Both the position numbers and the translations under genes were made by a program. The notes beneath the pieces are model-generated. The model did not search any database. It saw only the letters and a program-made list of their open reading frames with translations, and was not told the DNA's origin. A stretch of DNA of 64,000 bases. Origin: an uncultured delta proteobacterium. GTDB lineage: Bacteria; Desulfobacterota; Desulfomonilia; UBA1062. Position 1 is the first letter of the stretch. Each line of letters opens with the position of its first letter. The stretch covers positions 275,055 through 339,054 of the forward strand of contig CAVVYZ010000017.1 in the NCBI GenBank assembly GCA_963752595.1. Direction: 5' to 3'. This document shows positions 30,822 through 38,190 of the stretch, piece after piece.

Positions 30822-32123
30822 TTAGTCTTCGTCGTCATATACATGGGGTTTCTGCGCATCGGGGGGTACCTCTGAGGCGATGGAGCGGTTGATGCCTTTG
30901 GCGAGGATCGCGGCGATGGAGAACAGGATGATCATGGCGCCGAAAAGGATGATGACGATGGTGGCGAGCCAGACCTGGCCTTCTTTCTCGATCTTGTCGG
31001 AAGTGACCTTGGCCTGCTCGTTGAACTTTTCGATATCCACGCCCAAGGCTACGAACCCGAAGCCTGCGGGTTTGGGATAATCGGCGGAGTAGAAGGGGAT
31101 GGGAGCATAGGCAACCATCTTGGTGCGTTCATCGAACTTGTAGGTCTTGATCCCGGACTTGCCGGCCAGGGCTTCCCTGGCTATTTCGGGCATGCCGGGC
31201 TCGATCCCGTCGATTGAGATGAGGTTGAGCACTTCTTCGCCCAGCTTCTTCATCTCGTCATAGTTGGTGGGATTGATGGGAGGCACCTGTGTGCCGTCCT
31301 TGTACAACCCTGCTATGTGGTAATCGAGCGGATGGGCGATGACGAAACCCTTCTCGTCTACCATGTAGGCATAGTTGCCGGTTGAGGCATCTGCCTTGAT
31401 GACATACTCGGACTCGGTCGGGATGATGTTGTCCGTATATCGTGCGAGGTGCCGTGCATCGAGGGCAAGAGCCACTACCCCAATGAATCCCTGCTTGTCG
31501 AACAGCGGTGTCGCCATTCGAATGATCCCCTTGAATCTCTTCCCTTGCTCGAATTCAGCCTTGTTCACATACCACCCGGTCATGTGAGACAGATAGACCT
31601 GACCCTTGTCCAGACCTTTTGCCTTGAGGAAGTAATCTTCGGACTTATAGGTCGTATTGGCAGGGTTGCTCACGTTCTGGAGTGTGTTTCCCGGAACAAC
31701 CTGGCCGTCCACCAGTTTGATGACCTCCCGGCCGTTTCTGTCGATAAATGACATCTCCACATACAAGGGCAGCTGCTCCTTGACGATGCCCTGGTCGGTT
31801 TTGACCCACAGGGAGCCCGTCTTGGTGGTGAGGAAATCCTTGTATGCGGAAGCAGTGGCAGGAATGATGGTGGCGATGAGCGCGTCTTTCTGGCGCTCAC
31901 GCAGGAAATCCGCGATGTTCTGGCCCAGATCGACCGCGCGCACCTTGATCTCTGCTTGAGACTTCTGATCCAGAGCCAGCATGGCCCCTGACTTGGACAT
32001 GCCGCCGAAGTGGACAATGCTGAAGGCAATGAGGGAAGATATCAGTAATAAGGGGATGACTACGAGCAGGAAAAATAACCTCGCAACCGTGAGAATGCGA
32101 CTTCCTTTGATTGTTTCAGGCAT
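30822..32123 (-). CDS. Membrane-anchored Cache-domain protein without cytoplasmic output domain
   Basis: Two TM helices around a ~340-aa extracytoplasmic region with Cache hallmarks (EDYF, IIRMATPLFD...GVVAL, YAYMVDEKGFVIAHP, VAYAPI); ~25-aa tail. Confidence 0.75.
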   Translation of the reverse strand: MPETIKGSRILTVARLFFLLVVIPLLLISSLIAFSIVHFGGMSKSGAMLALDQKSQAEIKVRAVDLGQNIADFLRERQKDALIATIIPATASAYKDFLTTKTGSLWVKTDQGIVKEQLPLYVEMSFIDRNGREVIKLVDGQVVPGNTLQNVSNPANTTYKSEDYFLKAKGLDKGQVYLSHMTGWYVNKAEFEQGKRFKGIIRMATPLFDKQGFIGVVALALDARHLARYTDNIIPTESEYVIKADASTGNYAYMVDEKGFVIAHPLDYHIAGLYKDGTQVPPINPTNYDEMKKLGEEVLNLISIDGIEPGMPEIAREALAGKSGIKTYKFDERTKMVAYAPIPFYSADYPKPAGFGFVALGVDIEKFNEQAKVTSDKIEKEGQVWLATIVIILFGAMIILFSIAAILAKGINRSIASEVPPDAQKPHVYDDED

Positions 32124-32247
32124 TTATTTTTCCCCCTTATTGTTTGAAGCGTATTCTTTACAAACTCTTACGCCGGTTTGTTCATACTTTAGTTGTTCGT
32201 GAAACTGGTAACAATTATATATTCTCCCGTCAGTCACTTTCAGCACA

Positions 32248-32625
32248 TCAACCGAACAAGAAAGCCTTGAACGGGTTCACAAAGAGGAGAATGAGCGAAA
32301 TGACCAGGGAGTAGATGGCGATGGACTCGGCCATGGCCATACCGACCATCATGGTCATCATGATCTTGCCCTGAGCCGCCGGGTTTCTGCCCACTGCCTC
32401 GGAAGCTCCTGCCGCGGCATTACCGATGCCCGCACCAGCGCCGATACAGCCGAGCCCGATAGCGAGGCCGGCGCCGATCATGGCGCCCACCGAGAAGATG
32501 ACCTTTACATAAGGCGCCTGCTGAGGGATGACATCCGCTGCAAAGGCGGCAACCGGTGAAGCCAGTATCCAGACGGCTGCAGTTGCTGCAAAAGAGAATA
32601 AAATTTTAGCTGAATTGCGATACAT
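32248..32625 (-). CDS. atpE: F0F1 ATP synthase subunit c (orphan copy) with N-terminal signal-like extension
   Basis: GxGxGxG helix (IGAGAGIG), loop RNP, essential carboxylate in [22 protein letters not shown]. Confidence 0.93.
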
Positions 32626-32704
32626 GTTATTTCTCCTTTCATTGTGCAATAGTTTTCGTACCGTAAGCACCGAGTGAATGAATTCTCAATGCTGACTACC
32701 ATTG

Positions 32705-32721
32705 AGCAATAGATATGCCAA
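32705..32721 (-). promoter_or_regulatory. Sigma54 (-24/-12) promoter of atpE
   Basis: Minus strand TTGGCATATCTATTGCT fits TGGCAY-N5-TTGCW. Confidence 0.8.
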
Positions 32722-32748
32722 TCGCATACATCCCTCCTGAAACCTGAC

Positions 32749-32761
32749 CAACCATCTGATT
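32749..32761 (-). promoter_or_regulatory. Putative IHF site
   Basis: Minus strand AATCAGATGGTTG matches WATCAR-N4-TTR and lies between the enhancer and the sigma54 promoter. Confidence 0.5.
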
Positions 32762-32819
32762 TGCAACCTAATTTTCAGCCTCCCCTCCCATGGCACACTC
32801 CCCGGTTCATCCACCTTCC

Positions 32820-32867
32820 ATTAAACATATCGTTCAATCCTTCCCCCGCTCGTTGAACGAAAAGTGC
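32820..32867 (-). promoter_or_regulatory. Putative upstream activator sequence (copy A)
   Basis: Minus strand GCACTT-ttcg-TTCAACG-N14-TGAAC-N6-TTTAAT; contains the inverted repeat TCGTTCAA/TTGAACGA; the motif recurs at 37252-37300. Confidence 0.6.
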
Positions 32868-33028
32868 GATGCCGGCGATAACAATTGAAATTTACATGCT
32901 GAAGACCATCTGCAGAGAGTTGATGACTTTGCCTCTCCATTATGGTACTAAAAACATTGACAATTACTTGACAAAGTAGAGGCAAGAACAGCTGCTGATA
33001 ATATCGGAGAAAGAGATAAGGTCAAAAG

Positions 33029-33199
33029 ATGAGAGAAATCGGTGCCATTGCAGGATATCTTATAGCCTGGTTGTTCTGTGAGGTGGTAATAGGCATCAAG
33101 AGCGGGTTCGTTACGCTTTTAATCTCGCTGCTCTTTGCCTTTGCCATATATGCCCTGATCGCATACGCGGAGCATGAGGAAAGGGATGGCAACACGTGA
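33029..33199 (+). CDS. 56-aa two-helix membrane protein (below ORF-track cutoff)
   Basis: Manual translation MREIGAIAGYLIAWLFCEVVIGIKSGFVTLLISLLFAFAIYALIAYAEHEERDGNT*; directly upstream of the kinase on the same strand. Confidence 0.5.
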   Translation: MREIGAIAGYLIAWLFCEVVIGIKSGFVTLLISLLFAFAIYALIAYAEHEERDGNT

Positions 33200-37245: not shown

Positions 37246-37251
37246 AAATAA

Positions 37252-37300
37252 GCACTTCCGATTCAACGTTTCATCGAACGGGCTGAACATTCCATTTAAT
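37252..37300 (+). promoter_or_regulatory. Putative upstream activator sequence (copy B)
   Basis: GCACTT-ccga-TTCAACG-N15-TGAAC-N6-TTTAAT; identical in the mirror copy at 63523-63571. Confidence 0.6.
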
Positions 37301-37407
37301 TCTTAGCGAGTATGCGGGTGTATTTTGTCTAGGGGTGCCAGTGGCTATCTGCTGATAAAACAAGTAAAAACAATGAACTGGAAGGTTAAAATCATAGTTG
37401 CGGAGAG

Positions 37408-37424
37408 TTGGCACGGTTTTTCCT
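37408..37424 (+). promoter_or_regulatory. Sigma54 promoter (variant -12)
   Basis: TTGGCACGGTTTTTCCT: perfect -24 element, -12 TTCC instead of TTGC; same in the mirror copy. Confidence 0.65.
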
Positions 37425-37477
37425 AAGAGAAGGGGCAGCAAGCACACAAAAAGAGAATAATAAGGAGGGTCCTTACC

Positions 37478-37753
37478 ATGAAGAAAACAGTCCAGACAGC
37501 AATCGTAGCATTTTTTGTAATACTGATCACGTCAAGTTTTGCATTTGCGGCGCATGCGACCTCAGGAGGAGATAGCTTTCCGTACTTTCATCTTGGGTGT
37601 CTGATCATGGGCGGGATGACGATCGTATCATTGAAGCACCGGTATCCGAGGATGTACTTAAGCGAAGCGGTTGGGTCATTTGCGCTGTACGCGGTGCTGG
37701 TAGCGATGTTCACGGCTCCGGTAATCGGAGCGGTAAAGAATCTGGTAAGCTAA
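37478..37753 (+). CDS. 91-aa membrane protein (signal peptide plus two TM helices)
   Basis: SD AAGGAGG; MKKTVQ...FAFA signal; two hydrophobic helices; intact in both arms. Confidence 0.75.
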   Translation: MKKTVQTAIVAFFVILITSSFAFAAHATSGGDSFPYFHLGCLIMGGMTIVSLKHRYPRMYLSEAVGSFALYAVLVAMFTAPVIGAVKNLVS

Positions 37754-37851
37754 GGGAGAAGGGATAAAGGACCTGGTGAGGACCCGCCCTTGAGCAGGGT
37801 AGCCGAGCAAGGGGCTTATGGGCGGGGATGAGAAGAAAGGAGGGAACAGGT

Positions 37852-38109
37852 ATGGTACGGATGAATAAGAAGGTCCAGGATGCAAGGAACCTCAATCACA
37901 TAATGATGATGAGTGCATGGAGCTTTACCATAGTTGTTTCCTCGTTTGTGTTTCTGTTCGCGGGCAGGTGGATCGATGAGAAGATAGGGACGGAGCCCGG
38001 GTTCATGATCGGTCTGTTCATCTTGGGCATCGCGCTTTGCATCGGCCGGATGTACGGTGACTTCATCAAGACACGGGAGAACATCAAGAGGTACGGATAT
38101 CAACTCTAG
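37852..38109 (+). CDS. AtpZ/AtpI-family (ATP synthase gene 1) protein
   Basis: Two TM helices with the family signature G.WID...GTEP.FMIG..ILG; SD AAGGAGG. Confidence 0.78.
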   Translation: MVRMNKKVQDARNLNHIMMMSAWSFTIVVSSFVFLFAGRWIDEKIGTEPGFMIGLFILGIALCIGRMYGDFIKTRENIKRYGYQL

Positions 38110-38149
38110 TCTTATACGCAACTGATAAAGGTTTTAACCCCCACACACC

Positions 38150-38190
38150 CCGAGAGCCTATGAACCCCATCGGCTCTCGGACTTTTTATT
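38150..38190 (+). terminator. Intrinsic terminator after the AtpZ-family gene
   Basis: CCGAGAGCC...GGCTCTCGG stem followed by ACTTTTTATT. Confidence 0.7.

Follow-up and report, generated by a model that had tools for sequence, protein, structure and literature searches.

Why should a gene for the c subunit of ATP synthase stand apart from the atp operons, next to a sensor-like membrane protein and beside a sigma54 two-component system? The question is raised by a cassette at positions 30822 to 38109 of a 64,000-nucleotide stretch of DNA (the window, in what follows) from an uncultured delta proteobacterium of the Desulfomonilia group UBA1062 (assembly GCA_963752595.1, contig CAVVYZ010000017.1, positions 275,055 to 339,054). 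An earlier note on the window had proposed that an extracellular signal induces an alternative c subunit together with accessory factors. Comparison with the host genome (G000; 84% complete, 6.8% contamination), with 24 relatives of its family and with a sample of 400 genomes of the phylum indicates that the cassette is real and conserved; multiple c genes and the switching of whole operons were already known. The explanation we prefer, with a probability of about 0.55, is that the cassette would supply an inducible alternative c subunit that joins or builds the rotor of the housekeeping F1Fo enzyme, with a changed ion preference or ring size.

An additional c subunit paired with a Cache protein

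The left operon, on the minus strand, starts with atpE (32248..32625; 125 amino acids, with a signal-peptide-like leader), which was assigned by family hidden Markov models (HMMs; PF00137, E 3e-19, score 69.4 vs a cut-off of 24; TIGR01260, 47.9 vs 43.95). Its start at 32625 is conserved, and the GTG at 32670 chosen by the caller of open reading frames (ORFs) is not. The second gene, cache (30822..32123, minus strand), encodes a 433-residue protein with a dCache_1 domain between two transmembrane (TM) segments, residues 16-34 and 389-407, and a short acidic tail (PF02743, 59.3 bits vs a cut-off of 45). No cytoplasmic output domain was found, the protein ending about 25 residues after the second TM segment in all stand-alone homologs aligned; its structure model (predicted local distance difference test, pLDDT, 84.5) matched dCache ligand-binding domains in Foldseek, generically and at 10-16% identity. 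The description of a lone atpE followed by an output-less Cache protein is thus borne out.

On the plus strand follow a sensor kinase (33263..35851; 862 amino acids, TM-dCache-TM-PAS-PAS-HisKA-HATPase, H-box and G-box intact) and a sigma54 activator (35866..37245; 459 amino acids, REC-AAA+-HTH of the HTH_8 type, GSFTGA loop), both identified by family HMMs and motifs. Coordinates and HMMs agree with their placement between the atpE operon and a second target operon, made up of hyp91 (37478..37753, plus strand; 91 amino acids, a signal peptide and a two-helix membrane hairpin by alignment and structure model) and a gene of the AtpZ/gene-1 family (37828..38109, plus strand; PF09527, 39.1 bits vs a cut-off of 26.6). 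Of the "AtpZ/AtpI" label given to the last gene only the first half stands, since neither it nor hyp91 matches AtpI (PF03899), a model that the atpI of the host genome does match. The genes listed earlier are all in place, and one was overlooked: a conserved ORF for a 56-residue membrane protein (33029..33199, plus strand) directly 5' of the kinase gene, with homologs before the kinase in relatives and a ratio of nonsynonymous to synonymous substitution rates (dN/dS) of 0.10. It is likely a kinase accessory; scans with Pfam- and TIGR-type HMMs gave no family, and protein atlas look-ups gave unnamed clusters only.

The atpE gene of the window is an extra one, because the host genome encodes an N-ATPase and, on two contigs, the canonical enzyme as an atpZ-I-B-E and an F1 operon. 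A genome search found five atpE but two atpB, so this is not the organism's only c gene; the cassette itself holds no genes for a, b or F1. Three of the five atpE are unlinked to atp operons: that of the window, a 99% identical copy and one that is 50% identical. The 99% copy (L084:8155-11180, at G000:C5:119-122 kb) comprises both target operons back to back, with both enhancers (see below) kept, cache frameshifted and the 56-residue gene, kinase and activator missing; it may stem from a second strain or from the assembly. The third unlinked atpE precedes a Cache paralog (39% identical), with rnfABCDGE and nfnAB downstream.

This association of atpE with cache is the tightest unit of the locus, which the earlier note missed, as it did the second pair next to rnf. 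In 47/47 loci with upstream DNA (3 further ones, cut by contig ends, were left out), atpE lies directly upstream of a stand-alone cache on the same strand, at 37-230 bp, and it was near none of the 21 kinase-fused Cache homologs fetched, 2 of which had little upstream DNA. Stand-alone Cache genes occur in 23 of the 24 relatives and in 18 of the 400 phylum genomes (6 in the window's family, 12 in five other families), and the same sensor is fused to a kinase in 27 further genomes of that sample. Trees and homologs show that the stand-alone Caches derive from kinase sensor regions.

Quick trees of c (92 columns) and of Cache split alike into two groups. Group A, the type of the window's cassette, forms one clade over two classes, with support of 100 for c and 99 for Cache in the Shimodaira-Hasegawa-like approximate likelihood ratio test (SH-aLRT), and is found in Desulfomonilia and in what we call Syntrophales-type genomes, a label for families outside Desulfomonilia taken from the source names of the homologs. 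The cassette is thus conserved across two classes. Group B, to which the rnf-linked pair of the host belongs, was found in the window's family only; its support is 100 for Cache, and its c is not resolved as one clade. Among the relatives, 9/24 carry group A and 23/24 group B. The group-B pair lies upstream of rnfA or nfnA in 21/25 loci, has no sigma54 site, and occurs in 14 genomes in which a search for orthologs of the window's kinase found none, which weakens the idea that Cache is a mere helper of the adjacent kinase. The group-A pair is divergent from the genes for the 56-residue protein, kinase and activator in 11/11 Syntrophales-type loci with upstream DNA; across loci the gene order is rearranged in several ways and the gene set is kept. 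One relative (G009, 80% complete) has the group-A pair with no kinase detected.

These patterns lend themselves to another explanation, in which c and Cache would associate in the membrane apart from F1Fo. The c-ring of such a complex would act as a regulated uncoupler or a sensor-effector, with Cache gating its ion leak or its availability according to ligand state. The strict pairing argues for it, as do the joint duplication of the two genes (both trees show the same A and B clades), the persistence of group B in the 14 genomes and the fact that no subunit a travels with the pair. Cache, however, lacks the mid-membrane Arg of subunit a and its TM helices are kinase-like, and the extra c carries an invariant F1-binding loop and a-facing helix, common to housekeeping c, that a free ring would not obviously need. 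We hold this explanation to be unlikely.

Some features of the individual loci are worth recording. Upstream of atpE in most group-B loci of the family lies a gene such as that at L083:7822-9366 (G000:C1), for a 515-residue protein with a c-di-GMP-binding MshEN-type N-terminus and a PilT-like ATPase. Between them, at about 9430-9520 of L083, a conserved sigma70-like promoter is followed by an inverted repeat of the type ATTCAG-N9-CTGAAT, both in 9/9 group-B loci examined; the repeat is likely the operator of another regulator. In the complete genome G422 (L158:7809-10284), the housekeeping atpE adjoins the group-A pair, head to head at their ends and about 100 kb from atpZ-I-B, with cache and the kinase gene frameshifted.

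Sigma54 promoters and a shared enhancer

Two outward-facing sigma54 promoters had been proposed for the locus. The left one, before atpE-cache (32705..32721, minus strand), is the only exact match to the -24/-12 pattern in the window (1 found, 0.29 expected, a number reached in 25/100 shuffles). The right one, before hyp91-atpZ (37408..37424, plus strand), has a mismatch in the GC of a non-consensus -12 element, and matches with one mismatch are about as frequent as chance predicts (5 found vs 3.98 expected). Neither site exceeds chance alone; both are convincing because they are conserved across loci, the left core in 22/22 group-A loci and the right in 22/22 dispersed hyp91 copies of the family, at -55 to -70.

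Aligned DNA upstream of group-A atpE further revealed two 17-bp palindromes (consensus TTGAAC-N5-GTTCAA), 30-32 bp apart and about 100-150 bp before the -24/-12 site. In the window, these are a proximal copy at 32821..32837, also recovered by the genome scan, and a distal one 32 bp away at 32853..32869, both on the minus strand; a matrix scan found two weaker copies before hyp91, at 37262..37278 and 37283..37299 (plus strand). Core and enhancer occur together at 22/22 group-A atpE loci and at 0/74 other atpE loci, and in 9/9 group-A loci outside the training set, a count that leaves out the window because it nearly duplicates a training locus. Taken singly, the enhancer is absent at 74/74 and the core at 73/74 of the other loci: the core was found in 0/23 group-B loci (one was dropped for short upstream DNA), 0/10 Syntrophales-type housekeeping, 0/30 canonical and 1/11 N-type or hybrid loci.

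The same signal marks the second operon elsewhere. When the matrix was built without the genome's own site, the six highest paired enhancer scores among 408 sigma54-like cores of the host genome belonged to two atpE, three hyp91-atpZ and one unlinked atpZ paralog, which carries a broken hyp91 remnant. The enhancer scored at least 10 in 21/21 family hyp91 copies with 300 nt upstream; for full-length copies in the phylum sample it scored at least 12 in 21/21, with a core in 18/21. Scores of at least 12 were reached by 7/360 random upstream windows of the host genome, a background that would be higher in A+T-richer genomes. Presence profiles agree as well: hyp91 occurs in 9/9 relatives with group A vs 1/15 of the others, and its family in 16 of the 400 phylum genomes (in G020 only as a distant 58-residue type), each of which is one of the 18 that have a stand-alone Cache. 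A gene resembling hyp91 lies directly 3' of cache in four Syntrophales-type loci.

Because the dispersed hyp91-atpZ copies bear the enhancer of atpE-cache, the two operons point to a single sigma54 regulon, which the pair of kinase and activator would very probably switch on; the conserved promoters and enhancers thus back this part of the earlier note. As in other sigma54 two-component systems, the kinase and the REC-AAA+-HTH activator have intact motifs and the targets carry a -24/-12 site (the right one with its non-consensus -12) with an upstream palindromic enhancer. From the co-occurrence we infer that the activator may bind the 17-bp palindrome; it scores below the equivalog cut-offs of NtrC, AtoC and ZraR. 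The proposed extracellular signal does not hold in general: the kinase is a soluble PAS protein without an outer dCache (no membrane helices by hydropathy) in 2/11 Syntrophales-type loci, so that its input need not be extracellular.

The next two promoters of the genome scan with enhancer and sigma54 site, at G000:C26:54068 and C22:173512, precede respectively a gene that we take to be glutamine-synthetase-III-like and one for a 222-residue secreted protein; they are possible further members of the regulon or cross-matches. Scans for sigma70 promoters and terminators gave matches at chance level only, and a search with one consensus found no site of the integration host factor (IHF) type between enhancer and promoter.

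The extra c subunit and the rotor

The R-N-P loop of c binds F1, and the outer helix of c faces subunit a. In group-A c (residues numbered as in I. tartaricus, by alignment to 1yce), E65, the R-N-P loop and G27/G29/G31/G33 are kept in 20/20 sequences, and R45-N46-P47, E65, S66, I69, Y70, L72 and V73 are invariant in groups A, B and housekeeping c. Since these loop and outer-helix residues are invariant, the F1-binding loop and the a-facing helix of group-A c can be regarded as kept. Selection on it is strongly purifying, with a dN/dS of 0.04-0.06 vs 0.05 for housekeeping c. Residues specific to group A are Ile32 (20/20), Ala64 (19/20), Ala36 (18/20) and a few of the inner helix, and the c of the window is 39% identical to the housekeeping c of its host. 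That group-A c would enter the rotor of the housekeeping enzyme seems to us rather probable from this conservation.

What the exchange might change is suggested by position 32. The direct Na+ ligands of c include Gln32, according to the accessible text of PMC4453477 and PMC3692424, and more hydrophobic sites favour protons, according to that of the review PMC7594442. Group-A c has Ile at this position (20/20) where 22/23 canonical c of the window's family have Gln, and so lacks the Gln/Glu expected of a Na+-binding c of the Ilyobacter/Fusobacterium type; Glu65, Ser66 and Tyr70 of the Na+ site are present in 20/20, and position 67 (Thr in the Na+ site) is Ile or Val in group A and Leu in canonical c. 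As the canonical c there has Gln32, a shift toward protons is predicted for the window's family, in which Ile would make the group-A site more proton-selective than that of housekeeping c. The protein is not of the N-ATPase type (TIGR03322, 70.6 vs a cut-off of 130.85, and outside the N clade in the tree). Its best structural-sequence match is the Acetobacterium woodii hybrid c-ring (PDB 4BEM), from whose type it departs as a single hairpin with Glu, with no atpB in the cassette.

According to our proposal, the kinase and activator would turn on atpE-cache and hyp91-atpZ together through sigma54, and the extra c would enter or build the ring of the housekeeping F1Fo rotor, changing its ion preference or ring size. 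The hyp91 and AtpZ proteins might help to build or service this ring, and Cache could sense an extracellular ligand as a membrane partner of the extra c. Purifying selection acts on these three genes as well (dN/dS 0.11-0.19 for Cache, 0.10 for hyp91, 0.14 for AtpZ). Published work connects AtpZ with Mg2+ uptake and AtpI with assembly of the synthase (PMC4453477, in its accessible part). The hyp91 family (805 homologs) has an invariant Glu in its two-helix hairpin; HMM scans gave no family match, structure comparison no fold match and atlas look-ups unnamed clusters only. That hyp91 could be a shortened c subunit is no more than a lead: its likeness to c in hhalign is weak (probability 27% at full length, 7% for the mature part), concerns the second helix of c, was reached in score by 2/200 shuffles and was nearly equalled by an AtpZ control (17.0 vs 18.7).

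Published transcription bears on group B only. The accessible part of PMC7082340, a digester metatranscriptome with two Desulfomonilia UBA1062 genomes, lists consecutive genes for a 120-residue atpE product, an uncharacterized 425-residue protein and rnfA, a layout that we matched to group B from gene order and lengths rather than sequences. The atpE of this trio is transcribed at the level of canonical atpE, with 86 reads vs 46 over the 15 libraries, both low counts. With the column order of the supplement taken from its first sheet, butyrate raised the 425-residue gene 1.74-fold (p 0.0018) and canonical atpB 2.14-fold (p 0.0006); for the trio atpE the two genomes gave rises of 2.4-fold (p 0.42) and 2.19-fold (p 0.0008). 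The proteome of PMC12994167, in the part accessible, lists one c subunit and does not bear on the cassette.

This parallel rise of group-B genes and canonical atpB is what would be expected if the cassette merely boosted the dosage of ordinary c and assembly factors at times of greater demand for ATP synthase, with Cache serving the kinase in trans, as a sensor or for feedback. The descent of stand-alone Caches from kinase sensor regions, the two loci whose soluble kinase could use an outside partner and the unchanged core residues of c fit such a role. Yet group A keeps its own residues over two classes rather than tracking the housekeeping c of each host, and group B shows that Cache goes with c, not with the kinase; we regard dosage as decidedly improbable.

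Several observations weigh against an alternative c subunit of the housekeeping rotor. The relatives' genomes are not independent of each other, given their kinship, and one of them (G001, 97% complete) has the kinase while no group-A pair or hyp91 was found in it. A normal Fo needs no periplasmic dCache partner, and yet the pairing is universal at the loci counted. Housekeeping c also lacks Gln32, having Met or Leu, in 10/10 Syntrophales-type and 6/6 sister-family sequences; its loss was hence rejected as a general sign of an ion switch, which cannot be the general purpose of the cassette. The inner-helix glycine zipper of group-A c is unchanged, so that ring size is not predictable from the best-known motif. 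Within the putative regulon, the glutamine-synthetase-like gene has one strong enhancer match. In addition, 6/8 AtpZ-family genes of the host lie outside atp operons, and a 58-59 residue cousin of hyp91 occurs there in four copies (C1:235486-236131, C2:70196-70637, C2:77686-77859 and C22:157023-157199), two followed by an AtpZ-family gene and two with a sigma54 core, the C1 copy having a perfect palindrome of its own, TGTGAC-N5-GTCACA, twice. Because this cousin with atpZ stands under other promoters without the cassette's enhancer and atpZ genes are scattered, the hairpin-AtpZ module may do a job unrelated to c. Finally, in Syntrophales-type genomes the housekeeping atpE, too, lies away from atpZ-I-B; the orphan position that had been taken as distinctive is normal there, and we rejected it as unusual for those genomes.

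The last two points would also suit an accident of history, in which a detached atpE was captured beside a sigma54 system and a kinase gene cut short, without any function in common. Against this stand the enhancer and promoter kept at dispersed hyp91-atpZ copies, the coinciding presence profiles, a gene set that stays while its order is reshuffled in several ways, and purifying selection on all genes tested; shared history without shared function is very improbable.

Neighbouring features, known systems and significance

Around the cassette, an inverted repeat between thiE and cache (30753..30791, strand not assigned), a self-complementary match in the sequence that the terminator scan did not flag, is likely to end the left operon as a bidirectional terminator. 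About 5 kb from the cassette, 24473-25855 (minus strand) presumably encodes RpoN (sigma54), as read from its N-terminus; an rpoN-like gene is likewise near the cassette in G004, G011 and G024. The contig end (36825-64000) is a large imperfect inverted repeat, with arms within 40865-59911 at 84% and 36825-40565 vs 60263-64000 at 92% identity and frameshifted acetyl-CoA synthetase genes in both; it probably arose by misassembly or by the joining of sequence from two strains. Within it lies a second hyp91-atpZ copy (about 62719-63345, minus strand, atpZ frameshifted), which corrects the statement that the window held no other atp genes.

The c genes of A. woodii lie in its atp operon. The hybrid c-ring that they form (c1 plus c2/c3; PDB 4BEM) is the closest precedent for several c genes in one energy-limited anaerobe, and consists of nine single-hairpin subunits and one four-helix subunit according to the accessible part of bioRxiv 2026.10.01.756066. 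There, however, c1 is a double hairpin, whereas the c of the cassette is a single hairpin with Glu, unlinked to atpB, and has its own sigma54 system and Cache partner. A more extreme resemblance to that hybrid rotor was seen in two relatives (L179:6757-9178 in G007:C70 and L182:6511-8969 in G020:C47), in an extra F-type atp operon that is absent from the host genome: its c subunit of 484-487 residues has six hairpins, with Glu in the first only and Gln in the other matched ones, and adjoins a single-hairpin c with Glu32/Glu65/Ser66/Thr67/Tyr70. Multi-hairpin c matches were also found in G005, G006, G013, G015, G016, G017, G018, G021 and G023.

Condition-dependent use of different c subunits is known from bacteria that have two or three whole ATP synthase operons, namely Photobacterium profundum SS9 (PMC10054830, accessible part) and Pelobacter carbinolicus, where a two-component regulator, ColR, was predicted for one operon (PMC3543383, accessible part). 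These bacteria switch entire enzymes, whereas the cassette supplies c and accessory genes only, with no a, b or F1. The N-ATPase (atpDCQRBEFAG) similarly places an additional F-type c beside a gene-1-family protein, but the host has a separate, complete N-ATPase and the cassette's c is not of that type. With the AtpZ-AtpI of Bacillus pseudofirmus OF4 and Deltaproteobacteria the cassette shares a PF09527 protein, paired here with hyp91 instead of AtpI and under a sigma54 promoter. With NtrC/AtoC/ZraR-type systems that have divergent targets it shares the kinase, the REC-AAA+-HTH activator, tandem 17-bp palindromes about 30-32 bp apart and the -24/-12 sites; its activator, however, is an ortholog of no named member and its targets are ATP-synthase-related membrane genes. 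Among the titles and abstract openings listed from the open literature, which leaves subscription journals mostly outside, we found none that describes a c gene under regulation of its own and partnered by Cache. New in this work are the occurrence of the cassette in Desulfomonilia, the rnf-linked second pair with its published transcription, the regulon counts with their controls, the profile of hyp91 and the limits set on the ion-switch idea.

Should the exchange of c be real, it would be a new kind of ATP synthase control, in which the enzyme is re-tuned on demand by energy-starved anaerobes. Ring size is described in PMC7594442 (as accessible) as set by sequence, constant within a species and unaffected by growth conditions. 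Syntrophic fatty-acid oxidizers live near the thermodynamic limit, and ion gradients pay for their reverse electron flow; because of these energetics, changing the number of ions per ATP or the coupling ion by the swap of one subunit would bear directly on the survival of a syntroph. In a further and doubtful form of the idea, which we offer tentatively, the rotor of syntrophs might be rebuilt on demand, through a dedicated two-component system that induces another c together with assembly factors of its own, with the ligand-sensing Cache acting directly on the ring and the gear ratio or coupling ion following the energy supply. As concrete material for tests the locus offers an operon of two genes, an enhancer of defined sequence, an accessory hairpin without a family name and a sensor-like protein that accompanies the c subunit at every locus seen.

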